44,915 bases of DNA from Candidatus Aenigmatarchaeota archaeon (GCA_021162085.1 JAGGZI010000034.1:1-44915); one strand, 5' to 3'. Numbered from the stretch's first letter, positions 16,157-37,288 are shown. The notes: generated from the sequence alone by a model not told the origin. A program made the numbers and translations.

Positions 16157-19100
16157 TCACTCTTTCTCGTATTTCTTTTTTAATTCTTCATACGTTTTTC
16201 TGGATATCAATCCATCTTCGTATTGGCTCTTTATCATATCCAATATATCAGAGTGCTTGCTGACACCCATTTTCTCTTCCTCTTTCATCTTTTCTATGCT
16301 CTTAATCAGTTTCATCCTGTTCTGTATGTGAGATCTTCTAATTATAAGTATTGTGACTAATGACGTAGCAACTACAACAACTATAAATACGTAAACCCAC
16401 GTGGGAACTACAAATACTATCTTCGGTGCCTTTAAAGAGGATAGTTGATAGTTAACGTCTTCAAGTGTATTCCTTGCATCGTCCAAACTCTCTGTAGCCT
16501 CAAGAAGCTTCCCCTCGTTTAGATATTTCTCGCTAACATCAACCATATTTGTCGCCTTTTCCAAAAGTCTTAGAGGATTAGAAACGTCTATGCCTTCACT
16601 TCCAATCACACCTGCCTTTTCTTCAAGGTCTTTAATTAATTCCCTTGTTTTTTCAATTCTCGCTTTCAATAACTCTTTCTTTGACTCAAAAACCTCTATT
16701 TCATATTGTTGCTCCACTAGAGCCTCATCTGATATGATCTTCAAGTTGCTGAAGTAGACACCCCTCGTCATGTTTTCTGGAATTTCAAACTTGGTTATTA
16801 AATAACCAACTGATCCTGGATCAAGTGTTTGTATCTCTTTTATGGATTCAAACCATTCTGTTGATATATTCTCAAAATAAGATGTAATGTTATGCAATGG
16901 GGTGGTTCCCGTATTTTTAATCTCAATGATTATGTATCTTATTCCGCCCCTCTCTACCATCAGTTCATCGGGCATTATGTTCAGAATTGATAATATGCCC
17001 TTGGCAGTTACCTCCTTCTTCGGAGCAACTGTAGGAGCACCATGTGGTCCTGTTGGTGGTATTGTTGTTGTGGTTGTAACTGATTTAACTACCTTAAATG
17101 TCTTGTTCGTCTGAATTGATGACTGTAAATTGGAATATGTCATTTTTACATTAAGATAATAGTCTCCAAGTGGTTGATCAGAATATATTGGCAGACTTCT
17201 CTGAAAACTCTTGTTTGTTGCAGAATCGACATACACAGCTTCTCCAGTCACAGAAGCATAAGTCTGATTACCATCAGAAACCCAATAATCCAGTGTAACG
17301 TCCTGACCAACATCTCCCATATTCTCTATGAATATTGTGAAGTTTTGACTGCCACCCCTTGGAACCTCTGACTCATAATTAGATATCACTACATCATAAG
17401 GTCCGCCAGAAGATACTCTGAACGATTTTATGTGTTCTGTTTTTCTTGTTCCCTGCCATACTGAAATATCTGACAGATAATATCCATTTGCCGTTGTTGA
17501 TGGCATTGCGTAGTCATACATATACAATACACTTGTGTCAGTTCGATTCACTATTTCAAAATTAGATTTGTCTGCTTGAAGATATAAATTCTGAGCTGGG
17601 TCAAATACCTCTAAGGTAATATTGTCTGGCTCTTGAATTGTATTTGTTGTATACAAAAGTAAATAAAATTTCATTATATTATCAGGGTACCACACAACGC
17701 TTGTTTCAAACTCGCTAGAATATCTCTCATAAACATTAAAGTTATAATCACATGTATCGTTTATTAGTATATTGCCTATATCATCATAATAAGTTGTGAA
17801 AGAGCTCAATTTATACTGTCCCAACGGAGCATCAGATGGTACCTGAAAGGTTGGTATTAAATCAAGAGTACCATTGGAATTTGTCTGATAATTTTCCTCA
17901 AATCTTTTATTGTTTTGGGAATCATACATGGTTAATGTAATGTTTGCTGATAATGGCTCACCAACACCATCAGTTACATTGTAATAAATGGAACCTGACT
18001 CACCAACAAAATAATCTTCCCATCCCGTTTTAAGATTCGTGATAAGTTTAGGATATACGTAGAATGATGATGTGGAATTGCCCATCATATTCACACCATC
18101 CTCTGCATAAACTTCTACAGTGTATTGTCCTGGCAGGGTTGTGTTCCCCCATCCGTCTGGATACTGAATCCAATACTCATATATGTTTGAATAAATTCCA
18201 ACCAATGTCATTTCTTCACTGTACTTCCTTCCACTAGGGCTTGTCACATTTGCGGTTGCCCACGCTATTCCAGTACCAGACAAATCTGTAACATTGGCAT
18301 AGATATTCAAAGAACCAAACTCTTCGGTAACATTTGGCTGAAGTGATATGTTTATAGATGGATGAGCATAAGGCTCAAGATATATTTTTAGTTCTTGGGT
18401 TTGGGGTGATGCAACTTGCACAGCCTGAACAACATACGTAGAATTATAATATCCCTTCGGTGAACCTGTTACATTCCACCATACAGAGAATGTATAATTT
18501 CCTTGCTTCTCAATAGTAAAATTGGTTACATTGACGTAAGTATGATTTGCCTCAGATGGTGATATTGTGAAATTTATCTCACTGTTTCCTGTATTTTTTA
18601 TGATAACATCTGTAACCTTACCTTCATCTTGATATGTTGGCTGTACCTTGGACTTGGGATTCATTGTCCATGTTCTGCTGATGGGAACTGAAACATTTAG
18701 AGTTAAAGTATCCCATCCATCGTTATATGAAGAAACGTTCAATATTCCTGTGTAGTTACCTGGATCGTAACCCAACGGAACAGAAACATTCACATTAATT
18801 GTTTGGTTCTCTCCCGCAGACAAGATTGTTGGTGACGATATGAATTCAAATGAGAAATCAGAAAGATTGTAAACATTATATTCAATTCCTGTGACAACGT
18901 CATTTCCTATACTCCTTAATGTGAAATTACCCAATGTTGATTCTTTTCCGTGTTCTGCTGAGCCATAAATATAACTTTTGTCTATTGATATCATAGGATT
19001 GGACTCGACTGCCACATTAATACTTGTCTGATTTGAATTTGTCCCTATGCCTGGATTGAGCCACTCTGTTGTAGCGTTGAATTGATAATCCCCTGGTGTT

Positions 19101-21895
19101 GTTCTCTTAATTGAAATTAAAAATGGCTTTGAGCACGTATCGCCTGCGCTAACATTACCACAGAATACTTTGTTATTTGTGTAATTTGAAATCCAGTATT
19201 GTGGTAGGTTTAGAGTTACATTTACATCGAAGGCAGTTACATTACCTATATTTGTAGTATTTATAACTACCGTAAAATTCTGATAATCATACCATGTTAT
19301 ATTGTCGGCGATGAAGCTTTTTGGCTCTGATTCTATGCTCATATTGGTCTCTGGAACAATTATCTCCAATGTCAGGTTATCCCATCCGTCGTTGGATGTA
19401 GTAACGTTCAGATTCCCATAAAATATTCCTCTTGGATGGTTAGAGGGAACAAAAACTGATATCTGAACAGATCGGTTACTGTTCATCCCAAGAGACGATA
19501 TGTTCTCTGGTATGAAACTGAAGGACATGTCATTGAGTCCGGTCACATTGAACTTCACATTTGTTATATTATCGTTACCAATTGACATCACAGTGAAGTT
19601 ACCGACAACCTCAGTTTGTCCGGTAGGAACGAACTTTGAGAGAAAATCTTCTGGAATGTTAACCAATGGATTTGATGTCACGGTGACATTTAAACTTCCA
19701 TAACTTGTATTATATGTTTCACCAGGATTCTTCCACTTTACCGTGGCATTGATCACATAATTTCCAGGTGGTGTTGCCTTTGGTATAGTTATCATAAAAG
19801 GTTTTGAAGCAGAATCCCCTATGTATATATTTCCAAGGTTCTCAAACGTTGAGTTTGCAGACCACCGGGGGAGTAATGATAAAGTTACATTAGCGTCGTA
19901 AGCCGTGCCATTCCCTATATTCGTGGCATTAACAACGGCTTCAAATGATTGATTTTGATAAAGTGTTATGTTACCGGCTGTAAATCCGTTGACAGCGAAA
20001 GTAAAATTTACACTTATGTTCGTTTTAACATCCTCTGTGCTGAATATGTCGGTATCCCACCCATGACTTCCTGTTTTTTCTGCAGTGCAGTTCAAGACAA
20101 ATGTACCATAATAGGACGGTGCCGTAAAACTTAATGAATACGTACCATTACCATAATCTGTATAATTATCAACATAAGTGGAGTCCCAAGAACAATTCAA
20201 AGATGCATTGGCAATCCATTCATCCTGCCTGTAATTTTTAACCAATATAGTTGCATTGACTACTCTTCCAACAAGGCCAGACGGATTTAAGATTGTTGTA
20301 TTAACAAAGTATTCATCGGTCAAATTGAATGATGCACTGCTTGAATTAAGTAAATATCCCCCGCTGTCGTATGCCCTTGTAGTTACGTTCCACACCCCTG
20401 TTGTATACGATGATGTGAAGTTGAAATAATTTGAAAAAACCTTATCCCCTGCTACATCATCACCGTGTGATGGATTACCATCATCGTAAAGTATTATAGT
20501 TTCATCATCTCCTGTATTTGCAGTTCCCATGTTAAGTGTAGCATTTACATAACTAACCAAGTCACCGGGATCATATGTTACATTTACTGTCATTTTGGCC
20601 GACTCACCTCTATTGTAAGTATTGTGATCTGTGTTTGTTTTTGTTATTACACTCCACCTTTCCGGTGATTGTTGAGAAATGATGACAGGATTCAATAATC
20701 TATCCCTTAAATCCTTAACCTGAGTATCCGATGGTGTACCTCCTATGCTTGCTGGACTATTAAAATGAAGTACTGCCTTATCCCATATTGATTCATTGGG
20801 TTGTACAGTCGTTGAGTTAAGCTCTATTCCCATTCTCTCGTAAGTGCTGTTTCTATCGGCTGCCCAGAAAATTGAAGATGAATTCACATTTATCAAACCA
20901 ACATGAGAACTTGCAAATGTTGAAGCAAACCATTGCCACGAACCTGGTTCTGTTGAATTACCCGATGAAGTCCATGCCAATCCCGCCCTAACGACATCCA
21001 TGGCTAAGGCACCTGCTCCTGTAGAATTTCTTGTTATAGGATAATTTGCTTCATTAGTAAAATTCTGCTCCACAACTATCCATTGCTTTTTCCTGTAGAA
21101 TATGTACTTCTTTTCTATTCTTCCCTCGGTTATGTTTTCGGTATGGTTCCATATGGTTTCGTTTCCTACCTGCTCAACCACTATCCTTACAGGACCCACA
21201 TATTTGAAAATTGCGCTTCCATTCAAATCAAAAGAAAAATTATAGGTGCCGTTTGAGTATTGCATGTATTCTATTGTTCTTTCATTTGAGCCAGGTATTG
21301 AGAATATGTCATTGCCCTCGTAGTCAACAACCTCATACAAACCTGACGTGTCTTCCCCTCTTGATGTATCTACATACCAGCTCAAATATGTGTTGTTTAC
21401 ATTGAATTCTTTTCCATTCCAGAAATAGGAAAGGTTCGTTGGATACGATGCACCTTGCTTTTGTCTGTCTATGGTATCGAAATATATGTAATAATATCTC
21501 TTTGTATTACTGGGTGTCGTTCCGTTCATAAGGAAAACTACCTTGCCCACAGCATTGTTTGAAGCGTTAAAATTGTCTGCCTCATCAAATTGACTCGGAA
21601 CTTCATATAGGAGACTCCCTGATGAATTATACTCAAAAACCCTTGTAGAGTTTTCGTCAAAATCATCAGAAACGTTGAGATTCTCCAGTATTGACGTGAA
21701 GTTTATGTTATATTCTATTGGCCAGTCTTCTCTATCGTAACTGGTAGAATTAATCTCTATTGGAATTCTGTAGTACCATGTAGAATTCCACCACTCTGCC
21801 GCTAAGGCGTTGCTCTGTAAGTTCAAAAATACTAATAATCCTATAAAAATGGAGATACTAAAACCTATTAAATTTCTTCTTGTCATATCAATCAT
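16157..21895 (-). CDS. Giant (1,912 aa) secreted/anchored surface protein, paralogous to the central and C-terminal modules of the 13-kb gene; DUF2341-like N-terminus, CARDB-like repeats, Thr-rich linker, TM helix, SHOCT-like cytoplasmic tail
   Basis: The signal/anchor is MIDMTRRNLIGFSISIFIGLLVFLNLQSNALA, followed by WWNSTWYYRIPIEI (a DUF2341-type opening). It is rich in sequons. Repeated NIGNGTAYDANVTL / NIGNVTAFDVNVTL and SNPLVNI / SNPMISI modules match those of the first giant gene. The C-terminus has VTTTTTIPP, the TM IVFVVPTWVYVFIVVVVATSLVTILII (16340-16420) and the tail ...YEDGLISRKTYEELKKKY. Confidence 0.85.
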   Translation of the reverse strand: MIDMTRRNLIGFSISIFIGLLVFLNLQSNALAAEWWNSTWYYRIPIEINSTSYDREDWPIEYNINFTSILENLNVSDDFDENSTRVFEYNSSGSLLYEVPSQFDEADNFNASNNAVGKVVFLMNGTTPSNTKRYYYIYFDTIDRQKQGASYPTNLSYFWNGKEFNVNNTYLSWYVDTSRGEDTSGLYEVVDYEGNDIFSIPGSNERTIEYMQYSNGTYNFSFDLNGSAIFKYVGPVRIVVEQVGNETIWNHTENITEGRIEKKYIFYRKKQWIVVEQNFTNEANYPITRNSTGAGALAMDVVRAGLAWTSSGNSTEPGSWQWFASTFASSHVGLINVNSSSIFWAADRNSTYERMGIELNSTTVQPNESIWDKAVLHFNSPASIGGTPSDTQVKDLRDRLLNPVIISQQSPERWSVITKTNTDHNTYNRGESAKMTVNVTYDPGDLVSYVNATLNMGTANTGDDETIILYDDGNPSHGDDVAGDKVFSNYFNFTSSYTTGVWNVTTRAYDSGGYLLNSSSASFNLTDEYFVNTTILNPSGLVGRVVNATILVKNYRQDEWIANASLNCSWDSTYVDNYTDYGNGTYSLSFTAPSYYGTFVLNCTAEKTGSHGWDTDIFSTEDVKTNISVNFTFAVNGFTAGNITLYQNQSFEAVVNATNIGNGTAYDANVTLSLLPRWSANSTFENLGNIYIGDSASKPFMITIPKATPPGNYVINATVKWKNPGETYNTSYGSLNVTVTSNPLVNIPEDFLSKFVPTGQTEVVGNFTVMSIGNDNITNVKFNVTGLNDMSFSFIPENISSLGMNSNRSVQISVFVPSNHPRGIFYGNLNVTTSNDGWDNLTLEIIVPETNMSIESEPKSFIADNITWYDYQNFTVVINTTNIGNVTAFDVNVTLNLPQYWISNYTNNKVFCGNVSAGDTCSKPFLISIKRTTPGDYQFNATTEWLNPGIGTNSNQTSINVAVESNPMISIDKSYIYGSAEHGKESTLGNFTLRSIGNDVVTGIEYNVYNLSDFSFEFISSPTILSAGENQTINVNVSVPLGYDPGNYTGILNVSSYNDGWDTLTLNVSVPISRTWTMNPKSKVQPTYQDEGKVTDVIIKNTGNSEINFTISPSEANHTYVNVTNFTIEKQGNYTFSVWWNVTGSPKGYYNSTYVVQAVQVASPQTQELKIYLEPYAHPSINISLQPNVTEEFGSLNIYANVTDLSGTGIAWATANVTSPSGRKYSEEMTLVGIYSNIYEYWIQYPDGWGNTTLPGQYTVEVYAEDGVNMMGNSTSSFYVYPKLITNLKTGWEDYFVGESGSIYYNVTDGVGEPLSANITLTMYDSQNNKRFEENYQTNSNGTLDLIPTFQVPSDAPLGQYKLSSFTTYYDDIGNILINDTCDYNFNVYERYSSEFETSVVWYPDNIMKFYLLLYTTNTIQEPDNITLEVFDPAQNLYLQADKSNFEIVNRTDTSVLYMYDYAMPSTTANGYYLSDISVWQGTRKTEHIKSFRVSSGGPYDVVISNYESEVPRGGSQNFTIFIENMGDVGQDVTLDYWVSDGNQTYASVTGEAVYVDSATNKSFQRSLPIYSDQPLGDYYLNVKMTYSNLQSSIQTNKTFKVVKSVTTTTTIPPTGPHGAPTVAPKKEVTAKGILSILNIMPDELMVERGGIRYIIIEIKNTGTTPLHNITSYFENISTEWFESIKEIQTLDPGSVGYLITKFEIPENMTRGVYFSNLKIISDEALVEQQYEIEVFESKKELLKARIEKTRELIKDLEEKAGVIGSEGIDVSNPLRLLEKATNMVDVSEKYLNEGKLLEATESLDDARNTLEDVNYQLSSLKAPKIVFVVPTWVYVFIVVVVATSLVTILIIRRSHIQNRMKLIKSIEKMKEEEKMGVSKHSDILDMIKSQYEDGLISRKTYEELKKKYEKE

Positions 21896-21970: not shown

Positions 21971-22537
21971 CTACGAAAGATTGGTGATTGAATTGCGTAT
22001 CAGCTCTTCAGTGCTTTTCTTTAATTCGCCCAAGGTACCCTCATTTATTATTATGAAATCTGCCATAGCTATTGGTCCTCCAGTATGTAAATTCTCTATC
22101 TGGCTGTAATCCCTATTCTCTGACTCAGTAAAACTCAGTGGTCTAACATTCCTTATTGAAAGTCTTGAATATCTTGTTTTAGGTGAGGCATAAACAGCAA
22201 CAACTCTGAATCTATCTCTATATTTTTTTCTTAAAATTTTGTACTCTCCCCAGGAATACATACTCTCGACTACGACATTACCCCTTTCTAAAAATTCCTC
22301 AATTTTTGGTATTGATAACTTTGCCATAATTCCCATACCACCCTCTTCTCTCATCTTCTCCCTTATGAGCCTCTCGTTTTTCTCATTAACTTCTAAACCC
22401 TCTTTCTTCAATCTATCGAATACCGGTTCGCCAAAATAAACCCGATAGAATCCTTGCTCTTCGAACACTCTCACAACTTCGCTCTTTCCAGAACCAGGCA
22501 TTCCTACAACTGCAACTACAATACCCATTACAATCAT
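21971..22537 (-). CDS. P-loop nucleotide/dephospho-CoA-kinase-like protein (UPF0200 family)
   Basis: The sequence MIVMGIVVAVVGMPGSGKSEVVRVFEEQGF... contains Walker A GMPGSGKS, and size and layout match archaeal UPF0200 proteins. I moved the start from 22564 to the Met at 22537 because 22545-22564 is the 3' end of tRNA-Leu. Confidence 0.7.
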   Translation of the reverse strand: MIVMGIVVAVVGMPGSGKSEVVRVFEEQGFYRVYFGEPVFDRLKKEGLEVNEKNERLIREKMREEGGMGIMAKLSIPKIEEFLERGNVVVESMYSWGEYKILRKKYRDRFRVVAVYASPKTRYSRLSIRNVRPLSFTESENRDYSQIENLHTGGPIAMADFIIINEGTLGELKKSTEELIRNSITNLS

Positions 22538-22544
22538 CTTAATA

Positions 22545-22869
22545 TGGTGCGGGGGGTGAGACATCCGACATAGGTTTCGAATTCATGAACCCATTTTCTT
22601 TTTTTCACTGCTTGAATTAAAGTTTATTTTGAACGTAAACGCCTTTTTTGTGAAAGAAAAGGGGTTTCTCACGAAGGACCTACGTCCACAGGATTTCTCA
22701 AAATTTCTTATTTCATAGTTCCATTGGAACTCAACACTTAAGTCAAAAACTTAAGTCCTGCCCCTTTGGCCATTCCCAGAACCTTTCCATTTTCACAAAT
22801 TGGACTGAAGTTTTCTTTCCTAAAGTCCCTTTCTTTTGTGAAAAGAAAGGCTTTCTTGGGTACCCCCGC
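22545..22869 (-). tRNA. tRNA-Leu(UAA) with apparently four introns, CCA encoded
   Basis: Exons (minus strand): 22869-22855, 22772-22750, 22694-22668, 22633-22628, 22561-22545. Introns: 82 nt (D-loop, AG|TGG), 55 nt (37/38), 34 nt (53/54) and 66 nt (59/60). The spliced product is 88 nt. Stems: acceptor GCGGGGG/CCCCCGC, anticodon stem CAGGA/TCCTG with loop CTTAAGA, long variable arm TGGACGTAGGTCCTTC, T arm GTGAG-TTCAAAT-CTCAC. Exact splice junctions are ambiguous by 1-2 nt. Confidence 0.8.
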
Positions 22870-22898
22870 ATATGATAATAATTAATGTCAAACAGAAA

Positions 22899-22907
22899 TT
22901 TATAAAG
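22899..22907 (-). promoter_or_regulatory. TATA box for tRNA-Leu
   Basis: CTTTATAAA on the minus strand lies 30-38 nt upstream of the tRNA 5' G (22869). Confidence 0.5.
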
Positions 22908-22913
22908 ATTGTG

Positions 22914-22958
22914 ATTAAAAAAAGAAAGAGAAAGAAAGAGACCATCCTAAAGGTCTCT
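22914..22958 (-). terminator. Stem-loop plus oligo-T tract downstream of the small histone-fold gene
   Basis: The AGAGACC...GGTCTCT hairpin spans the stop codon. It is followed on the minus strand by CTTTCTTTCTCTTTCTTTTTTT, an archaeal oligo-T type terminator. Confidence 0.4.
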
Positions 22959-23114
22959 TGCTTGAATGGTTTTTCTTCCATTTGCTTTTGCTCTTTCAGC
23001 TGCTTTTTTAACTAAAGCTCTTACTTCAGCATCCAAAGCATCATAGAAATCAGCACTTACGTTGTTTGATTTTTTTACTAGGTCCTTTACAGCATTCTTT
23101 ACTATCAATGCCAT
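22947..23114 (-). CDS. 55-aa histone-fold-like small protein (DUF1931-like); absent from the supplied ORF track
   Basis: My own translation is MALIVKNAVKDLVKKSNNVSADFYDALDAEVRALVKKAAERAKANGRKTIQARDL*. GGAGGTG lies 6 nt upstream of the ATG. The C-terminal A.ANGRKTI.ARDL resembles the histone-fold/DUF1931 signature (HAGRKTV..EDI). Confidence 0.6.
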   Translation of the reverse strand: MALIVKNAVKDLVKKSNNVSADFYDALDAEVRALVKKAAERAKANGRKTIQARDL

Positions 23115-23242
23115 CTTTCACACCTCCACTATTTTAGGCTTTTGGCCCTTTCTATGATAGTTATTAAAACTTCCAAATATAAAGGTTTCGGAGCCATTTA
23201 AATAGAAATTAGCTAATTCTGCTTTTCATAATAAAATAAAAA

Positions 23243-23595
23243 TGGTGCTCCCGCCGGGACTTTCACTAACCCGCAAGGAACCTACGGTTCCTTTCAGTTT
23301 TACGATATTCCTGATATCTTCCCTTCCTTTAAAAATATCAGGAAAACTTGGAGAGTTTTCCAAGTTTTTGGGAATACAAGACCTTTTTTGAAAAAGGGCT
23401 TGTTTTTGAACCCGGGTCTTCGGCTGTCTTCTATCACTGAACCAAAAGTTCTCAACCCTTTCGATTCTAATCGAAAGGCCGACATCCTTGGCCATTGCCC
23501 AAACCTTTCTTTTCTTTCGCCAACTTCAAGGAAGTTTTTCTTTTCCTGAAGGCTTTCTTTTTGTGAAAAAGAAAGGCTTCCTAGACTACGGGAGC
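23243..23595 (-). tRNA. tRNA-Glu(UUC) with three introns, CCA encoded
   Basis: Exons: 23595-23581, 23494-23472, 23425-23405, 23259-23243. Introns: 86 nt (D-loop, AG|TGG), 46 nt (37/38) and 145 nt (T-loop, 59/60). The spliced product is exactly 76 nt. Stems: acceptor GCTCCCG/CGGGAGC, anticodon stem TCGGC/GCCGA with loop CTTTCGA, T arm CCGGG-TTCAAAT-CCCGG. Confidence 0.85.
23256..23324 (-). repeat. Copy A of a 69-nt conserved element (3' part of the T-loop intron plus first 4 exon nt) in tRNA-Glu
   Basis: Plus strand reads gggactttcacTaacccgcaaggaacctacggttcctttcagttttacgatattcctgatatcttccct. It matches 26229-26297 at 68 of 69 positions. Confidence 0.9.
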
Positions 23596-23645
23596 GTATT
23601 TAAATTTCTTTTCGTACAACTCTTTTCTTTCTAAGAAAAGGTTGT

Positions 23646-23828
23646 TGGTGGGCCAGGGGAGATATATCCAGCAGGCTTCCGCCTTGCGTCCTTCGGACAT
23701 ACGCACACTTCGTGCGCGTCAGTAAATTGAACTCCCGACCTCTGCCTTGTAAGGGCAGCGTCATAGCCAATCCCCAAACCCTCTCTTTTCTTTTGTGAAA
23801 AGAAAGGGTCTCTCTAGACCACCGGCCC
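23646..23828 (-). tRNA. tRNA-Val(UAC) with two non-canonical introns, CCA encoded
   Basis: Exons: 23828-23814, 23769-23727, 23663-23646. Introns: 44 nt (D-loop, AG|TGG) and 63 nt (T-loop, 58/59 or 59/60). The spliced product is exactly 76 nt. Stems: acceptor GGGCCGG/CTGGCCC (one G-U), anticodon stem CTGCC/GGCAG with loop CTTACAA, T arm GGGAG-TTCAAAT-CTCCC. Confidence 0.85.
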
Positions 23829-23871
23829 ATGAATTAATTCTATATATGTATGTCGGTTGGTTTTATATTAA

Positions 23872-25125
23872 TTAAGTTCCCTCATTATATGAATTTAAAT
23901 ACTTCCTTTGCTCATCTGTTAAAGAGTCTATACTTATTCCCATACTCTTCAACTTTAAAGTGGCTACTAGCTGATCCTGCTCACTTGGCACTTCATATAC
24001 CTTTTTCTCAAGTTTTTTATGATTTTCTAGAATGTACTTGAGAGATAAAAACTGGTTTGCAAAGGACATATCCATGACCTCGCTTGGATGCCCCTCTGCA
24101 GCTGCAAGATTCACGAGTCTTCCCTTTGCTAGGAGATAAATTTTTCTTCCATCCCTTAGCTTGTACATCTCGTTATTAGGTCTTATTTCTCTCTTACTTG
24201 CTGAAATGTCCTCCAGATCCTGTATATTTATTTCACAATCGTAATGACCTGTGTTACAAACAACAGCGCCATTCTTCATTTTTTCAAAATGCCTCCTAAC
24301 TATGACATCTTTCATACCTGTAGCAGTGATGAATATATCACCTATTTTTGCTGCCTCATCCATGGTCATTACAGAGAATCCATCCATCCTTGCCTTAAGC
24401 GCCTTTATTGGGTCAACCTCAGTAACTATCACGTTTGCTCCCATTCCTCTTGCTCTGTTTGCCACTCCTTTTCCACAGTGACCGTATCCTGCTACAACGA
24501 AGTTCTTTCCTGCGAGGAGAATTGACGTGGCCCTCATTATGCCATCCAACGAGGATTGACCCGTTCCATATATGTTATCAAAATCCCATTTGGTTTCGGC
24601 ATCATTCACAGCTATCACAGGATACATGAGTTTTCCATCTCTTACCATGGACTTCAATCTGTGAACACCCGTGGTGGTTTCCTCTGTCCCACCCATAACA
24701 TTCTTTGCAAGTTCTGGATACTTGTTGTGGAGTGTGAATATGAGATCTGCGCCATCATCCAGGGTCAAATCTGGTTTTATTTCCAAAACTCTATCAATAC
24801 ACCAATAGAATTCTTTTCTGTTCATTCCATGCCAAGCAAATATGGAGATTCCTTCCTCTGCAAGCGCAGCCGCAACATCATCTTGAGTGCTCAATGGATT
24901 GCATCCACTCCATGCTACCTCCGCACCTGCCGCCACAAGGGTCTTTATCAAAACAGCAGTCTCCTTTGTCACATGAAGTGAACCACCTATCTTCACTCCC
25001 TTAAATGGCTTCTCTTTGGAATATTTCTCTCTAAGCATCATCAAAACAGGCATCCTTGATTCTGCCCATTCTATTTTTTTCCTTCCTTCCTCAGCAAGGC
25101 CGATATCCCTTACCTTGTATTTCAT
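23872..25125 (-). CDS. ahcY: S-adenosyl-L-homocysteine hydrolase
   Basis: 417 aa. Matching segments include MKYKVRDIGLAEEGRKKIEWAESRMPVLM, GTEETTTGVHRL, the NAD-binding AGYGHCGKGVA and CNTGHYDCEI. Family match is full length. Confidence 0.9.
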   Translation of the reverse strand: MKYKVRDIGLAEEGRKKIEWAESRMPVLMMLREKYSKEKPFKGVKIGGSLHVTKETAVLIKTLVAAGAEVAWSGCNPLSTQDDVAAALAEEGISIFAWHGMNRKEFYWCIDRVLEIKPDLTLDDGADLIFTLHNKYPELAKNVMGGTEETTTGVHRLKSMVRDGKLMYPVIAVNDAETKWDFDNIYGTGQSSLDGIMRATSILLAGKNFVVAGYGHCGKGVANRARGMGANVIVTEVDPIKALKARMDGFSVMTMDEAAKIGDIFITATGMKDVIVRRHFEKMKNGAVVCNTGHYDCEINIQDLEDISASKREIRPNNEMYKLRDGRKIYLLAKGRLVNLAAAEGHPSEVMDMSFANQFLSLKYILENHKKLEKKVYEVPSEQDQLVATLKLKSMGISIDSLTDEQRKYLNSYNEGT

Positions 25126-25134
25126 TTTTTCACC

Positions 25135-26169
25135 TCATACGTCCCAATAAAACCTGACTTTCTCTTTTATCTTGCTCACAATATTTTTTGTTTCATCAAG
25201 TCCCGAATACACGTCAGGTTTAAAAGAATCTTTGAATTCAGCATTTATATTTGTTAGTCCTGCCATTAAAGACATCCATGCATATGGTAGAACTTCATTT
25301 TTGTACCCGCTCACCATAAGGTCAATTACTTTTCCATTACACACCCTTTCTGAGACTTCTCTAACCTTTTCACCTATACTTCTAAATCCATCGAGTGTTA
25401 ATCCCAGGTCTGTTAATGGATCAGAGAAATGTGGATCTGAGCCACCATATCTTATTATTACATCTGGCTTGAACTTTAGCGCAAGTGGCTCGAAAATCTC
25501 GTTCAGAACATATTCGTATGCTTTATCAGAAGCTCCCGGCGGCATTGGAACATTAATTGTGTATCCCCATCCATTGGCAACTCCCATATCTTCTATAAAT
25601 CCCTTTCCGGGATAAAGCGTCCTCGGGTCCTGATGCAAATCTATGAAGAGAACTTTATTGTCAGAATAAAATATTTCAGATGTTCCATCTCCAGCATGGG
25701 CATCTGTATCAAGAATTAAAATTCTTTCCGCTCCTTTGTTAATCAAGTTTTTAGCGCATACTGCAACGTCATTGAATATACAAAAACCAGCTTCCCTTGA
25801 GCGCTTAGCGTGATGAAGTCCGCCACCTATTCCTATGACCTTCCTGTAATCTCCATTCCACACCAATTCTCCAGCAAGCTTTGATACACCAACTATCAGT
25901 CTTGCAGCATCATATAATTCTGGTCTCAATGGGGTGTCTAAATCTATGCCTTTGCCTTCTTTGACCCTGTTTATATATTCTTTTGTATGCACAAGCAACA
26001 AATCCTCTTCAGTCACAGGTTTTGGCTCTATTATATCAAAATACTTATCAAATCTATTTTCTTTAAAAACCTTCATGAATTCCAAAAATCTGCTACCCCT
26101 GAAGGGATGTCCGGGACCGAAATCATAATTCTTCAAATCCTTACTATAGACCAGTGCGTTCTCTCCCAT
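25135..26169 (-). CDS. Histone deacetylase-family enzyme (AcuC / acetylpolyamine amidohydrolase-like)
   Basis: GGLHHAKRSREAGFCIFNDVAV and DTDAHAGDGT are zinc/active-site motifs of the HDAC superfamily. The gene lies 9 nt upstream of ahcY on the same strand. Confidence 0.8.
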   Translation of the reverse strand: MGENALVYSKDLKNYDFGPGHPFRGSRFLEFMKVFKENRFDKYFDIIEPKPVTEEDLLLVHTKEYINRVKEGKGIDLDTPLRPELYDAARLIVGVSKLAGELVWNGDYRKVIGIGGGLHHAKRSREAGFCIFNDVAVCAKNLINKGAERILILDTDAHAGDGTSEIFYSDNKVLFIDLHQDPRTLYPGKGFIEDMGVANGWGYTINVPMPPGASDKAYEYVLNEIFEPLALKFKPDVIIRYGGSDPHFSDPLTDLGLTLDGFRSIGEKVREVSERVCNGKVIDLMVSGYKNEVLPYAWMSLMAGLTNINAEFKDSFKPDVYSGLDETKNIVSKIKEKVRFYWDV

Positions 26170-26215
26170 AATTATTATTTGACATGAAAGAAATAAAAAT
26201 ACGTGAACTGAAGCA

Positions 26216-26505
26216 TGGCGCTGGGGGAGGGACTTTCACGAACCCGCAAGGAACCTACGGTTCCTTTCAGTTTTACGATATTCCTGATATCTTCCCTAAA
26301 GATAATTGGCAAATGCAAAAGCATTTGCAAAACAATGGGAGGATATTCCCATAAGGAGGGAAATGTGTTCCCTCCGTAGGGTTTTGAACCCTCGAGGGGA
26401 CGTGCCCCACTAGCTTAGCAGGCTAGCGCCGTATTTGATCGTGTGCAGAAAATTGCAATCATTCACTCATGCACATCGACCTTTAAACCACTCGGCCACC
26501 CCAGC
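26216..26505 (-). tRNA. tRNA-Ser(GCU) with two non-canonical introns, CCA encoded
   Basis: Exons: 26505-26483, 26430-26383, 26232-26216. Introns: ~52 nt (D-loop after GAGTGGTTTAA; junction approximate) and 150 nt (T-loop, 59/60). The spliced product is 88 nt. Stems: acceptor GCTGGGG/CCCCAGC, uninterrupted anticodon arm CTAGC-CTGCTAA-GCTAG, long variable arm TGGGGCACGTCCCCTC, T arm GAGGG-TTCAAAT-CCCTC, discriminator G. Confidence 0.85.
26229..26297 (-). repeat. Copy B of the 69-nt conserved element, in the tRNA-Ser T-loop intron
   Basis: Identical to 23256-23324 except for one T/G difference. It contains the GGAACC-GTA-GGTTCC hairpin. Confidence 0.9.
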
Positions 26506-26532
26506 ATATATAAGCTTTAAATATTCTTAAGA

Positions 26533-26540
26533 TTTATAAA
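26533..26540 (-). promoter_or_regulatory. TATA box for tRNA-Ser (possibly bidirectional region shared with the PRC-barrel gene)
   Basis: TTTATAAA lies 28-35 nt upstream of the tRNA 5' end (26505). Confidence 0.45.
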
Positions 26541-26582
26541 TAATAAAGCTTTAATAAATAATGTTTGTCAGGGGGTAGAATT

Positions 26583-26873
26583 ATGCCAATTAATGTGAAG
26601 AATTTATCTGAAATGTTTGGAAAAGATGTTTTTACAACCAAGGGAGTTTATTGTGGAAAAGTAGGAGACGTAAAGGTGGATCTTACAAAATTCAGAGTAA
26701 GATCACTTGTTATAGAAGCTGCAAGAGGTTCATATTTGGCTGAAATAGTTGGCGGCAAGAGAGGAGTTATAATTCCGTATCAGATGGTTCAGTCAGTTGG
26801 TGATATAGTCATAGTTAAACACATAAATCCACCTGCAGTGAAAGAGTCGGAAGAAGAAACAGAAGAAAAATGA
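26583..26873 (+). CDS. PRC-barrel domain protein
   Basis: The sequence MPINVKNLSEMFGKDVFTTKGVYCGKVGDVKVDLTKFRVRSLVIE... has the size and pattern of archaeal PRC-barrel proteins. I prefer the ATG at 26583 (AGGGGGT SD 7 nt upstream) over the track's TTG at 26565. Confidence 0.65.
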   Translation: MPINVKNLSEMFGKDVFTTKGVYCGKVGDVKVDLTKFRVRSLVIEAARGSYLAEIVGGKRGVIIPYQMVQSVGDIVIVKHINPPAVKESEEETEEK

Positions 26874-33529: not shown

Positions 33530-34180
33530 ATGAAGATCGCTGATGGAATTTATCTATTGGATGGCGCCGAATTCGATTCAAACATGTTTTGCATAGACAA
33601 CGAGCTCTTGGTGGATTGTGGGAGTGGCTTCTTCATAGAAGAGACGTTGGCACAAATGGAAGAATATGGAATAGACCCTAAAAAGATAAAGATGATAGTT
33701 ATAACTCATGCTCATTTTGATCACTGTGGCGGCGCAAAGGAATGGAAAAAAATAACCGGCGCAAAAGTTTTCGTCCATGAGAATGACCTGAATGCACTTG
33801 AAACAGGGAATGGTGTAATGGCAGAAGAGTACGATGCAGAATATGAAGGCGTAAAAGCAGATGGAATTCTAAGAGAGGGAGAAGAAATAAAGACAAAAAA
33901 CTACACGTTCAATGTCATCCACACACCTGGTCATACTCCAGGTGGAATTTGTCTATGGGACGAGAAGAAAAGGGTTTTGATAAGCGATGATATATTGACC
34001 CCCGATGGTGTTGGTAGAAGTGATCACCCAGGAGCAAATGAAAAGGAACTTCTGAATTCCTTAAGAAAAATAAAAAAACTTGGTGACATACAGATTCTCT
34101 TACCTGGTCATGGTGCACCGGCATCCAGATACAATCCCTATGCAAAGGACGCCATAAAGAAGATATTAGAAAAGATTTAA
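33530..34180 (+). CDS. MBL-fold metallo-hydrolase
   Basis: ITHAHFDHCGGA (HxHxDH), HTPGHTPG and LLPGHG match the family. Confidence 0.8.
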   Translation: MKIADGIYLLDGAEFDSNMFCIDNELLVDCGSGFFIEETLAQMEEYGIDPKKIKMIVITHAHFDHCGGAKEWKKITGAKVFVHENDLNALETGNGVMAEEYDAEYEGVKADGILREGEEIKTKNYTFNVIHTPGHTPGGICLWDEKKRVLISDDILTPDGVGRSDHPGANEKELLNSLRKIKKLGDIQILLPGHGAPASRYNPYAKDAIKKILEKI

Positions 34181-34188
34181 TTCTATTT

Positions 34189-34401
34189 ATGAAATCAAAA
34201 ATTGTAGAATTCATAAACAAGATTCTATGGGAAGGAGAAATCTCCAATTACAACTTCATTATAATTCATAGGGGAGCACCGGGAGATGAAAAAAATATTC
34301 CTGGAGAGGATGTAACCGGCCTGAAAGATAGATTCTTAATTCTCAGAGACGGATCCAAAATACCCATTCACAGAATAAAGATAATTAGAAAAATTAAGTG
34401 A
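34189..34401 (+). CDS. DUF504 / UPF0248 (MJ1316-type RNA cyclic-end recognition domain)-like small protein
   Basis: 70 aa. FINKILWEGE...YNFIIIHRGAPGDEKNIP...KIPIHRIKIIRK matches the remembered pattern l..i.W....y.i.y.hRGa......IP.HRI..I of this archaeal family. Confidence 0.55.
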   Translation: MKSKIVEFINKILWEGEISNYNFIIIHRGAPGDEKNIPGEDVTGLKDRFLILRDGSKIPIHRIKIIRKIK

Positions 34402-34498
34402 AATCGTCAGGAATTGTGCCAAAAATTTTAAATATTTGTTTTATTAAAATATTTTTAGTGTTTATTTAAACTAAAATAATCATAAGGAGGTGGTGTAA

Positions 34499-34954
34499 AT
34501 GGCAAAAAAACCAATAAGGTTCTTCTGGGAAGACGATCCTTGGGACGATTTAAGCAGGATTCATGAGGACATCCATAGATTCATGAGAGATATGTGGAGC
34601 GTTCCTGATATAAGTGTAGGCTTTGGGTCAACATTCCCAGTGGACATAGCAGAGAAAAAGGATAAGATAGTAGTCACAGCAGATCTACCGGGAGTTGACA
34701 AGGAGAACGTCTCTGTTAGAATAGTTGACAATAAATTAATAATAGACGCTGAACAAAGTGAAGAAGAGAAAGAAGTTGATAAAAATTACCTAAGACAGGA
34801 GAGAAGATATGGTAAATTCCACAGAGAAATATTACTCCCTATAGAGGTTGAAGAAGACGAAGCGAAGGCAGAAATGAAAAATGGTGTTCTAAAGATAGAG
34901 ATACCAAAGAAGGAAAAGAGTAAGAGAAGAGGAAAGGAAATAAAGATCAATTAA
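34499..34954 (+). CDS. hsp20: Small heat-shock protein, Hsp20/alpha-crystallin family
   Basis: AGGAGGTGGTG SD precedes the ATG. Matching segments are VDIAEKKDKIVVTADLPGVDKENVSV, RYGKFHREILLP and AEMKNGVLKIEIPK. Confidence 0.85.
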   Translation: MAKKPIRFFWEDDPWDDLSRIHEDIHRFMRDMWSVPDISVGFGSTFPVDIAEKKDKIVVTADLPGVDKENVSVRIVDNKLIIDAEQSEEEKEVDKNYLRQERRYGKFHREILLPIEVEEDEAKAEMKNGVLKIEIPKKEKSKRRGKEIKIN

Positions 34955-34967
34955 CTCCCTTCCCTTT

Positions 34968-35975
34968 TTACATTTTTTTACATGATATTATATTTCCATT
35001 TACTTCAAATTTCACTGGAAGAAACTTCTCTGTAACCCACATATTTGTTTTGGCATGATTCGTGATCTCTGAAGCAGAAAATTCTCCACCACCAGCAAGG
35101 GCCATGTATGGTATTATTTGGTCTCCCATCCATCTATCAAGTGTTGCACCGCTATTCATTTCATCCTTTAATATTTTTGCGCACTCCATACCAACATCCT
35201 CTGCAGGCATTCCTGGACTACCTATGAAATCGGCACCAAGCTTTGTATTCTCGAAATGAGCATGTGCATGTATGCAGGATCCTGTAGATAACGTATCAGT
35301 ATAAAGACTATGTTCATGCTCGGTATAACTAAGAACCTTCTTAAATCCTTCTATCTGCCTCTCAGCAACCCTTCTTCCCTTCAAATCCTTTGAACACACG
35401 GACCATATATCAATTCTCTTAAACTTCCCCCTTTCAGTTATGCTTAACTTTTTCAGTCTTTGACCTGGAACTTCTCTAAATCTTACAACTCCACCTCCCC
35501 TCGGATAAAAGCCTCTTTTTTGAACATCTATCTTGACATAAACTCCCATTCTATCAAGGAAATTACAAAAGACATGCCTGAAGTAATCTATTGATGGACT
35601 CCACATAACATTAGTCCCACCCCTGATTTCTATTTCTATCTCCTTTTTTGTGTATATTGCAGGGGGTATTATAGTTTGTAATAGAAGTGTTATCGAACCT
35701 GCCGTTCCTATATCAACCGAGAATTTTCCACCTGTGATCTCTCCTGGATAGAACTCAATTGTTGTGGAGCCTATTTTATTCCCCTTTAACTTACCGTTAC
35801 AAAGTCTTGCAACTGTCTCTATTGCATTGAGATGCTGTGCTTTGAGACCAGGATTTGGCCTACCCTTCCTTATATTAAAAATCTTGCACGGTTGCCCAGT
35901 AACCGCAGATAGTGATACAGCTGTCCTGAGAATCTGCCCTCCGCCCTCAAGATAAGAACCATCTATCTCTATCAT
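34968..35975 (-). CDS. rtcA: RNA 3'-terminal phosphate cyclase
   Basis: MIEIDGSYLEGGGQILRTAVSLSAVTGQPCKIFNIRKGRPNPGLKAQHL is the characteristic RtcA N-terminus. The protein is 335 aa. Confidence 0.85.
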   Translation of the reverse strand: MIEIDGSYLEGGGQILRTAVSLSAVTGQPCKIFNIRKGRPNPGLKAQHLNAIETVARLCNGKLKGNKIGSTTIEFYPGEITGGKFSVDIGTAGSITLLLQTIIPPAIYTKKEIEIEIRGGTNVMWSPSIDYFRHVFCNFLDRMGVYVKIDVQKRGFYPRGGGVVRFREVPGQRLKKLSITERGKFKRIDIWSVCSKDLKGRRVAERQIEGFKKVLSYTEHEHSLYTDTLSTGSCIHAHAHFENTKLGADFIGSPGMPAEDVGMECAKILKDEMNSGATLDRWMGDQIIPYMALAGGGEFSASEITNHAKTNMWVTEKFLPVKFEVNGNIISCKKM

Positions 35976-36007: not shown

Positions 36008-37288
36008 TTATATTTCAACAACTTCTCCTATACTCGGTGCATACGCATCATATCCCATTTCCCTGAGCTCGCCAGCAAACTTTTCACACTCATCGCCATG
36101 CATGACAAGAATTTTTTCTGGGTCTATCATCCTAACGTATTTAAACAATTCATTACGTCCAGCATGAGCACTTAGATCTATGAACCTTATTTTGCACTTC
36201 ACCTTGAAGTTATCTGTTTCCGTTATGTATTTTCCTGTATCCAGGAGCGTCCTCCCCGCAGAACCTGGGACTTGAAATCCTGTAAGTATTAGGGAACATT
36301 TTTCATTCTGGTATAGCTTCTCCAGATAATGAACTATTGGACCACCATTCAACATTCCAGAAGTTGTCACCACAATGGATGGCTCATTGATTATTTTATC
36401 CCTTTGTCTATTGTTATGAACTTTAGTTATGGTCTTAAATATCTTCTCCAGTGCTTGTGGATTCCTTATAAGCTCCGGATACCTTAATATCACCTTCGTT
36501 GCATCAATTGACATCCCATCCAGATAAACTGGATACTTGTTGATCAATCCGAATTTTTCCAGAATCAAGAGAATCTCCTGAGCTCTCCCAACAGCGAATG
36601 AAGGAAGAAGTGCCACACCATTATTTTCCAAGGTGGCTTTTATATCCCCCACGAGTTCTCTTTCCTGCTTTTCTCTGTCTGGATGTTCTCTTTCGCCATA
36701 TGTTGACTCCATCATAAGGACATCTGTTCTTTCTCTTATGGGTTCCAGTCCCTTGAGAAGCTCAGTGTCCTTTAACTTTATATCACCAGAATAAACAATT
36801 GTCTTTTTACCTGTATCGAGATGAAAGGTAACAGAGCCTGGAATATGTCCCGCATCATAAACACCAATTCCCACCCTTCCTATGTAAAAATATTGTCCAT
36901 ATGTAACTCTGTACTCATTTTCTTCCATTATCTTGAGATCCTTGGAGAAAAAATGCTTTTCCTGATTCCTTAAGTTGGCCAACTTTATACTATCCTTCAG
37001 GAGAATTCTTGAGAGGTCGAATGTGGTTGCCGTTGAATAAGTGGGCCCCCTGTAGCCTCTGTGATAAAGGTTTGGAACGAATCCTGAATGATCAAGATGG
37101 GCATGAGACAAAAGCAAACCATCTAGGTTTAGATTAACCTTTAGCGGTATTTTCGGCTCTTGAAGTGGCCCCTCGGCTTGAGAAACTATCTTTATTCCAT
37201 AATCCATCAAAATCTTTTCTGTTCCAGTATCGAGAAGCACACCAGACCTTCCAACCTCTCGCGCTCCGCCAAGAAATTTCAAATTCAT
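36008..37288 (-). CDS. Beta-CASP/MBL ribonuclease (aCPSF2-like)
   Basis: MNLKFLGGAREVGRSGVLL, LLSHAHLDHSGFVP and a C-terminal SAHAGRNEL...MHGD are beta-CASP motifs. The 426-aa size fits aCPSF2. The gene lies 32 nt upstream of rtcA on the same strand. Confidence 0.75.
   Translation of the reverse strand: MNLKFLGGAREVGRSGVLLDTGTEKILMDYGIKIVSQAEGPLQEPKIPLKVNLNLDGLLLSHAHLDHSGFVPNLYHRGYRGPTYSTATTFDLSRILLKDSIKLANLRNQEKHFFSKDLKIMEENEYRVTYGQYFYIGRVGIGVYDAGHIPGSVTFHLDTGKKTIVYSGDIKLKDTELLKGLEPIRERTDVLMMESTYGEREHPDREKQERELVGDIKATLENNGVALLPSFAVGRAQEILLILEKFGLINKYPVYLDGMSIDATKVILRYPELIRNPQALEKIFKTITKVHNNRQRDKIINEPSIVVTTSGMLNGGPIVHYLEKLYQNEKCSLILTGFQVPGSAGRTLLDTGKYITETDNFKVKCKIRFIDLSAHAGRNELFKYVRMIDPEKILVMHGDECEKFAGELREMGYDAYAPSIGEVVEI

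Follow-up and report, generated by a model that had tools for sequence, protein, structure and literature searches.

A 44,915-nt stretch of DNA from Candidatus Aenigmatarchaeota archaeon (GCA_021162085.1 JAGGZI010000034.1:1-44915; the window) carries, on its minus strand between positions 22545 and 26505, genes for tRNA-Ser(GCU), tRNA-Val(UAC), tRNA-Glu(UUC) and tRNA-Leu(UAA), each interrupted by two to four insertions. We are confident that these are functional, colinear tRNA genes of a DPANN archaeon, probably Aenigmatarchaeota-like, whose insertions are protein-spliced introns of the bulge-helix-bulge (BHB) type that are removed from the transcripts. The minus strand of 22300-26800 was read directly, the proposed insertions were removed and the products were rescored. 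On the raw window ARAGORN reported 0 tRNAs and Rfam gave no tRNA match, neither at the gathering score nor at E≤10. After removal of the insertions ARAGORN called all four products, tRNA-Ser(gct) of 88 nt, tRNA-Val(tac) of 76 nt, tRNA-Glu(ttc) of 76 nt and tRNA-Leu(taa) of 88 nt. An earlier note on this DNA had claimed the four genes at these coordinates, with these product lengths, and had predicted that scanners would miss them. The genes are present, the lengths are retained with the junctions that the splice motif fixes, and ARAGORN was also blank on the loci of six related assemblies, in which it called no tRNA.

Exon and intron boundaries were obtained with a spliced aligner and the final junctions were fixed by a splice-motif test; Sprinzl positions in the D-loop are approximate. 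The tRNA-Ser gene (26216-26505, 290 nt) has exons 26505-26483, 26430-26383 and 26232-26216, and rests on the spliced alignment, the ARAGORN call on the product and homologues in the related genomes L085, L087, L089 and L145. The tRNA-Val gene (23646-23828, 183 nt) consists of exons 23828-23814, 23769-23727 and 23663-23646, and the tRNA-Glu gene (23243-23595, 353 nt) of exons 23595-23581, 23494-23472, 23425-23405 and 23259-23243. The tRNA-Leu gene (22545-22869, 325 nt) is divided into exons 22869-22855, 22772-22750, 22694-22668, 22581-22576 and 22561-22545, the fourth of which is a 6-nt micro-exon, TTCGAA. The exons of each gene are colinear on a single strand within 183-353 nt, an arrangement that is not that of split or permuted genes. 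Direct reading of the sequence shows that the acceptor, anticodon and T stems are fully paired except for one G-U in the Val acceptor stem, and that CCA is encoded. Across tRNA-Val, the fragment L081, which comes from an independent ENA assembly of the same organism, matches the window at 100% identity, and the structure is therefore not an assembly artefact.

Ser and Val have two introns each, Glu three and Leu four, which amounts to 823 nt of intron against 328 nt of exon (71.5%) and a density of 2.75 introns per gene for the four genes. Intron lengths range from 14 to 150 nt. The canonical 37/38 intron is present only in Glu and Leu, a D-loop intron at 15/16 is common to Val, Glu and Leu, and all four genes have a T-loop intron, which lies at 58/59 in Val and at 59/60 in the other three. 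The spliced alignment thus bears out the intron load of the earlier note (about 11 introns, about 72% of gene length), its restriction of the canonical intron to Leu and Glu and its D-loop site shared by three genes, and the reading of the sequence agrees with its well-paired stems and encoded CCA.

In the BHB register of the archaeal motif, bases -6 to -3 of the exon are paired with bases -6 to -3 of the intron, and each splice site lies after the second base of a 3-nt bulge. We verified this register on the canonical introns of Glu (intron 2, 46 nt, 23426-23471; CUUU/GAAG, outer helix h=5) and Leu (intron 2, 55 nt, 22695-22749; CUUA/UGAG, h=6), both of which have a 4/4 central helix and use the anticodon stem as outer helix. 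Over the whole set, this register yields a perfect 4-bp central helix between 3-nt bulges in 10 of the 11 introns. A 4/4 helix occurred at only 1.7% of control sites, for which the 3' site was displaced by 7-25 nt (920 trials). This complementarity at the junctions supports the reading of the insertions as BHB introns in the earlier note.

The introns at 59/60 mimic the canonical arrangement, with the T stem as the outer helix (hBH type) and T54-A57 paired to UGAA at the intron end. They comprise Ser intron 2 (150 nt, 26233-26382; UUCA/UGAA 4/4, h=5), Glu intron 3 (145 nt, 23260-23404; UUCA/UGAA 4/4, h=5) and Leu intron 4 (14 nt, 22562-22575; UUCG/CGGA 4/4), the last of which attains h=5 after removal of Leu intron 3. 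Val intron 2 at 58/59 (63 nt, 23664-23726) is GUUC/GGAU, 4/4, with h=4 in a shifted register, so that the anticodon or T stem provides an outer helix of h=4-6 at 37/38, 58/59 and 59/60. The introns at 15/16, 22/23 and 53/54 are of the HBh' type with long intron hairpins, and an intron helix of h'=3-12 is found at 22/23, at 53/54 and at 15/16 of Val and Glu. This group includes Ser intron 1 on the 3' side of the D-loop at about 22/23 (52 nt, 26431-26482; GUUU/AAAU 4/4, h'=5), Glu intron 1 at 15/16 (86 nt, 23495-23580; GUCU/GGGC 4/4, h'=12) and Leu intron 3 at the boundary of T stem and T-loop, 53/54 (86 nt, 22582-22667; CGUG/CAUG 4/4, h'=5). The two remaining 15/16 introns are Leu intron 1 (82 nt, 22773-22854; CCCA/UGGG 4/4), whose flanking helix begins after one mismatch, and Val intron 1 (44 nt, 23770-23813; GUCU/GGGG, h'=3), the single 3/4 case, which has one G.G. 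At 15/16 the central helix follows the exon: UGGG in the intron faces CCCA in Leu, CGGG faces CCCG in Leu of L087, and GGGC faces GUCU in Glu.

Relatives were found through the AAA-kinase gene that adjoins tRNA-Leu, which led to syntenic loci in six other assemblies: L085/L086 (JGI and ENA), L087 (GCA_964640225.1), L089 (CP070662.1, an 833-kb contig), L145, L147 (GCA_042215785.1, labelled Aenigmatarchaeota) and L148 (GCA_021161725.1, labelled Aenigmarchaeota). Exon-by-exon BLAST and spliced alignment recovered the same Ser-Val-Glu...Leu genes in the same order, every one of them split by 2-4 introns. With the window included, the seven genomes provide 25 genes and 68 introns, about 2.7 per gene, at positions 15/16, 16/17, 20a/21, 21/22, 22/23, 29/30, 30/31, 37/38, 53/54, 58/59 and 59/60. 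The genes with as many as four introns are Leu in the window, L087, L089 and L147, together with Glu in L089. Of the 45 introns in the first four genomes, 35 have a 4/4 central helix, and of the 68 in all seven genomes, 48 do; two more D-loop cases reach 4/4 after hand re-parsing of mis-aligned junctions at 21/22. Even under a generous 5% null, the excess across the clade has a binomial P of ~1e-46.

Intron positions vary from genome to genome, which is what one would expect of elements that can be removed. In L085, Ser has no D-loop intron but one at 37/38, Val lacks a T-loop intron, and the T-arm of Leu has only the 53/54 intron; in L145, Leu lacks the D-loop intron. The T-loop intron that the earlier note saw in every gene is thus universal in the window and not across the clade, as the L085 Val and Leu genes demonstrate. 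The mature sequences, by contrast with the largely unalignable introns, vary at only 8-15 columns across the seven genomes. Stems assembled from different exons show compensatory changes in Ser (acceptor pair 5:80, G-C/A-U; T-stem pairs 61:77 and 62:76), Glu (acceptor 7:68) and Leu (D-stem 10:26; variable arm 47:56). A TATTTAAA box upstream of the Ser gene is kept in the relatives, and no intact copy of any of the four genes occurs in the 45-kb window or in about 80 kb of related loci.

The exon conservation and the compensatory changes across exon boundaries therefore indicate working genes rather than pseudogenes. That the loci are dead tRNA genes, disrupted by small pieces of mobile or repetitive DNA that always stay in the RNA, would agree with the failure of scanners to detect a tRNA, with intron segments that recur between genes as repeats do, and with polypyrimidine/polypurine hairpins that also lie outside the genes, in the Val 3' trailer. 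It would leave unexplained why the exons stay near-identical in seven genomes while the insertions diverge, move and vanish, why splice-motif complementarity at each insertion is far above chance, and why the CCA ends and the upstream box are conserved; nor was an intact copy seen in the window or the related loci. We regard it as extremely improbable. Homologues of these tRNAs were not found at any of 55 metagenome loci that match the AAA-kinase neighbour, all at ≤56% identity; several of these loci carry ordinary, ARAGORN-detectable tRNAs. As to the host, the closest named homologues of the AAA-kinase gene are labelled Aenigmarchaeota, and those of TyrRS come from Woesearchaeota, Nanoarchaeota and Aenigmarchaeota.

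The junctions in the Leu T-arm differ from those of the earlier note, which placed the micro-exon TTCAAA (22633-22628) between introns of 34 and 66 nt. In the revised arrangement the 86-nt intron at 53/54 is followed by the micro-exon at 22581-22576 and the 14-nt intron at 59/60, with central helices of 4/4 (h'=5) and 4/4 (h=5) as against 2/4 and 3/4, and the intron and exon totals are unchanged. The T-loop consequently reads TTCGAAT and not TTCAAAT. The original junctions also yield an 88-nt product, one with the consensus TTCAAAT T-loop, a sequence that the Leu genes of L087 and L145 do contain. The related loci speak for the revision: the homologous 53/54 introns of L085 and L147 end in ...TTCACGAA, L085 Leu has TTCGAATCTCAT contiguous right after that intron, and L147 Leu repeats the two-intron layout with a homologous 13-nt intron at 59/60. 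The original junctions are thus very unlikely to be the right ones.

With the revised junctions, the 14-nt intron has no outer helix in the primary transcript (h=0) and acquires one of h=5 once the 53/54 intron is gone, which implies ordered splicing. The order in the Leu T-arm, 53/54 before 59/60, would be forced by these predicted structures. Ordered intron removal has been described for archaeal multi-intron tRNAs (PMC8450103).

We infer the following pathway for the four genes. Each would be transcribed as a primary transcript with two to four protein-spliced BHB introns, in which the four exon bases just 5' of the 5' splice site would pair with the four intron bases just 5' of the 3' splice site. 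Both splice sites would thereby come to lie inside 3-nt bulges, the substrate geometry of the archaeal splicing endonuclease EndA, in a motif held either by an outer helix (the anticodon or T stem; hBH) or by an inner intron hairpin (HBh'). EndA would cut both bulges and an RtcB-type ligase would join the exons; in the Leu T-arm, the motif of the 14-nt intron would form only after the 53/54 intron is out. What should result is a set of normal cloverleaf tRNAs of 76 and 88 nt whose CCA is encoded. The view of the earlier note that introns of this kind need an alpha2beta2 or epsilon2 endonuclease is outdated, as an alpha4-type EndA with an 'L3' loop has been linked to more tRNA gene disruption in DPANN archaea (Kaneta et al. 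2018, PMC5829648). A gene for RNA 3'-terminal phosphate cyclase (RtcA; 34968-35975, minus strand) adjoins a beta-CASP RNase gene (36008-37288). RtcA is not a tRNA ligase, and we count it in favour of the proposed pathway as nearby RNA-end metabolism.

Several observations weigh against this pathway. Neither EndA (tRNA_int_endo) nor RtcB was found among the window proteins or in the gene tables of the related loci. Minimum free energy (MFE) folding produced a complete BHB in 0 of 45 introns and the central helix in only about 10. The central helix of the Val 15/16 intron contains the G.G mismatch, and Leu 15/16 has no flanking helix directly beside the bulges. Four T5 runs lie within three introns (23580-23495, 23404-23260 and 22749-22695), and oligo-T tracts can act as transcription terminators in archaea. 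Near their 5' ends, the canonical introns of Glu and Leu also contain an inverted copy of the anticodon loop (23480-23456 and 22758-22735, minus strand). The pairing in Glu is between CCTTTCGATT and AATCGAAAGG. In Leu, two copies of GACTTAAG face each other, and the exon copy can pair with that of the intron because the core, CTTAAG, is palindromic. The result is a stable hairpin that spans the anticodon and the 5' splice site, in competition with the BHB; most of the relatives have it in their Glu and Leu genes too. A T8 run stands at the start of the Leu 37/38 intron in L085.

The folding result was obtained by local MFE and partition-function folding of single-intron precursors, and the canonical 37/38 introns fail the test likewise, so that the failure says more about the energy model than about the sites. 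We treat it as a limit of that model, in which 4-bp helices between bulges are penalised, and do not take an MFE-predicted BHB as a strict defining feature, although the result itself lends the BHB reading no support.

The same points would suit functional genes from which some insertions, mainly those with weak helices or competing hairpins, are removed without EndA, by a lineage-specific nuclease, self-cleavage or trans-splicing. Thermodynamic folding favours other structures, the Val and Leu 15/16 introns depart from the full motif, some introns of the relatives reach only 2/4, and the T5 runs could split the transcripts. Against this, one register of a 4-bp helix and 3-nt bulges fits canonical and non-canonical sites alike, the low scorers are few and some of them are alignment errors that become 4/4 on re-parsing, and the exons are colinear, close together and on one strand. 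Relaxed hBH and HBh' motifs are, moreover, accepted by broad-specificity EndA (PMC4090602, PMC5829648). We give removal without EndA very little weight beside protein splicing of BHB introns.

Introns of groups I and II carry a conserved ribozyme core and are usually longer than 200 nt. No match to either of these self-splicing types was found by Rfam in the window (gathering score, E≤10) or in L089 (E≤1); at the relaxed threshold the window gave only sub-threshold, unrelated matches, and nothing inside the introns. No C/D-box consensus was seen by eye in the large T-loop introns.

An all-against-all comparison of the 45 introns of the first four genomes revealed paralogues. In the window, the Glu and Ser introns at 59/60 are 98.5% identical in their 3' 65 nt, an element of which the window contains no further copy. 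In L089, the Leu 15/16 and 37/38 introns share 31 nt at 100% identity, and over 50 nt the Val 58/59 intron of the window matches the Leu T-loop 59/60 intron of L089 at 88% identity. The 15/16 introns of Leu, Val and Glu cluster together and have a common CCTTTCTTTTCACAAAAGAAAG hairpin; those of Val and Leu also have a common CCTTTCTTTTCACAAAAGAAA hairpin. Near-identical segments in different tRNAs and at different positions suggest that introns have spread, and, as judged from these sequences, introns appear to turn over fast in the clade, being gained, lost and copied between tRNAs and positions.

A hairpin scan identified a polypyrimidine/polypurine hairpin in the style of the intron hairpins, CTTTTCTTAGAAAGAAAAG, in the Val-Glu spacer, that is, the Val 3' trailer (23600-23645, minus strand). 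Perfect hairpins of this kind with a stem of at least 7 bp (CTTTTCTT...AAGAAAAG style) are located on the minus strand at 22849, 23574 and 23805, in the 15/16 introns, and at 23640, in the Val trailer, and these four sites, all in tRNA loci, are the only ones in the 45-kb window. In the relatives, hairpins like these come after the CCA end of tRNA genes. They may link intron and trailer sequences, or may be a shared protein-binding or termination element.

The tRNA-Leu(UAA) gene of L148 contains a 736-nt intron at about 30/31 (700-1435). Its ORF (open reading frame), at 705-1472 on the plus strand, encodes a 255-aa LAGLIDADG_3 protein (Pfam E=1.3e-13). The ends of this intron form a 12-bp inverted repeat beside a 3/4 central helix (H=3, h=3, h'=12), and between it and the canonical 37/38 intron lies a micro-exon of 7 nt, ACTTAAG. 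A free-standing LAGLIDADG-like ORF of 211 aa (Pfam E=3.7e-07) is located between tRNA-Val and tRNA-Glu in L089 (4259-4894, minus strand); no relationship was detectable between the two ORFs. Homing-endonuclease ORFs are known in archaeal rRNA BHB introns; our literature search found no mention of one in a tRNA intron. It is possible, if rather doubtful, that the whole tRNA set of the clade is saturated with spreading BHB introns, at about 2.7 per gene, with up to four in a gene and exons down to 6 nt, that the spread takes place at the DNA level with the aid of LAGLIDADG homing endonucleases and that the EndA is neither (alpha-beta)2 nor epsilon2. In that case no higher tRNA intron load would be known, and the L148 intron would, as far as mentions in the searched literature go, be the first tRNA BHB intron to bear a homing endonuclease.

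tRNA introns of this kind are already known from Thermoproteales, some Asgard archaea and DPANN; the genes described here are an extreme case and involve no new mechanism. No paper describing the tRNA introns of this clade was found. The authors of tRNAscan-SE 2.0 give up to three introns for archaeal tRNA genes, with a record genome of 71 introns in 46 genes and a Thermoproteales average of 0.84 per gene (PMC8450103). With 2.75 introns per gene, as many as four in Leu and an exon of 6 nt, the load in the window equals or surpasses the extreme published so far, on the basis of four tRNA species only, and the four introns of Leu exceed the stated ceiling of three.

The genes of Thermoproteales such as Pyrobaculum, Thermofilum and Caldivirga resemble those in the window in their BHB and relaxed hBH/HBh' introns, at many non-canonical positions and several per gene, and in introns, nested or adjacent, that have to be removed in order. 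Different tRNAs there also contain near-identical introns, a phenomenon termed 'intron transposition' (Fujishima 2010, as cited in PMC4090602). By contrast, the Thermoproteales are hyperthermophilic crenarchaea, whereas the present sequence is from a DPANN archaeon with about 37% G+C, and their average of 0.84 compares with 2.75 in the window and 2.7 for the 25 genes of the seven genomes.

In the Asgard Atabeyarchaeia and Freyarchaeia, introns are present in 92-95% of tRNA genes, with 228 introns in three genomes; as with the genes studied here, nearly all have introns, over half have several, many positions are non-canonical and tRNAscan-SE under-counts them (PMC11291895). The density that the earlier note called unusual is thus high, as it held, and less unprecedented than it implied. 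Differences are the phylum, a load estimated from those 228 introns at about 1.6 per gene, and the fact that the Asgard genes are still detectable by tRNAscan-SE. In the rows for one genome in Supplementary Data 4, curated counts reach three, and one gene listed there has four introns by tRNAscan-SE and three after curation (PMC11291895).

Other DPANN archaea, namely ARMAN-2/Micrarchaeota with an epsilon2 EndA and Woese- and Pacearchaeota with the alpha4+L3 enzyme, belong to the same superphylum and have multiple non-canonical introns (PMC3239211, PMC5829648), but these two papers do not include this clade, its intron load, 6-nt micro-exons or intron families. In the red alga Cyanidioschyzon merolae, nuclear tRNA genes have as many as three introns of BHB type, which lie in the D-arm, at 37/38 and in the T-loop and for which ordered removal was shown experimentally (PMC3728597); that organism is a eukaryote, with some genes permuted and fewer introns per gene. 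Split and permuted tRNA genes, known from Nanoarchaeum equitans, Caldivirga and Thermofilum, likewise depend on BHB-like motifs and EndA to build a tRNA from pieces, whereas no trans-splicing or permutation is needed for the colinear exons found here.

Standard tools find none of the four genes, and low or incomplete tRNA counts in DPANN genomes may thus reflect detection failure and not biology. Counts of 17-25 tRNAs have been given for some Aenigmarchaeota metagenome-assembled genomes of >90% completeness (PMC8407114), 'missing' Trp and Val tRNAs have been reported in Nanobdellota (bioRxiv 10.64898/2026.05.13.725050), and undetected disrupted tRNA genes have been suspected in DPANN (PMC5829648). 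The genes also mark out the limits of the splicing system, with four introns in an 88-nt tRNA, a 6-nt exon and motifs that would form only after removal of a neighbouring intron. The seven related genomes, with differing positions in the same four genes and recent copies, constitute a data set on the gain, loss and movement of BHB introns.

The surroundings are densely coding, at the same G+C content of about 37%, and include genes for TyrRS, SerRS, pyruvate:ferredoxin oxidoreductase subunits, RtcA and a topoisomerase, and two giant ORFs. The latter encode 4396 aa (49-13239, plus strand) and 1912 aa (16157-21895, minus strand), and similar syntenic ones exist in the relatives, for example one of 4271 aa in L089. 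Genes for an S-adenosylhomocysteine hydrolase (SAHH) and a protein of the histone-deacetylase family (HDAC) lie between tRNA-Ser and tRNA-Val (23872-26169, minus strand) in this genome only; in L085, L089 and L145 the two tRNA genes are 57-73 nt apart. The best SAHH homologue is 74% identical, with matches from unrelated phyla, and the best HDAC-family homologue is 65% identical, without synteny, the closest named ones being from Chloroflexi and Bathyarchaeia. From these comparisons, the block resembles an insertion that the tRNA cluster acquired by horizontal transfer.

A 55-aa histone-fold/DUF1931-like gene is located between tRNA-Glu and tRNA-Leu (22947-23114, minus strand), and a 55-aa gene is found there in all syntenic relatives. 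Mechanical ORF calls overlap the tRNA loci: one of 89 aa (23226-23495, minus strand) overlies tRNA-Glu, and spurious calls cover tRNA loci of relatives, such as 6824-7171 and 9627-9983 in L085. The longest AAA-kinase ORF (21971-22564, minus strand) begins inside the 3' exon of tRNA-Leu, and its real start is likely the ATG at 22537 (MIVMGIV...). Two further long gaps without annotated genes were considered as places for hidden tRNAs and rejected: the one at 34180-34499 in the window contains a small ORF, and positions 5630-6590 of L089 read as unannotated coding sequence and not as RNA.

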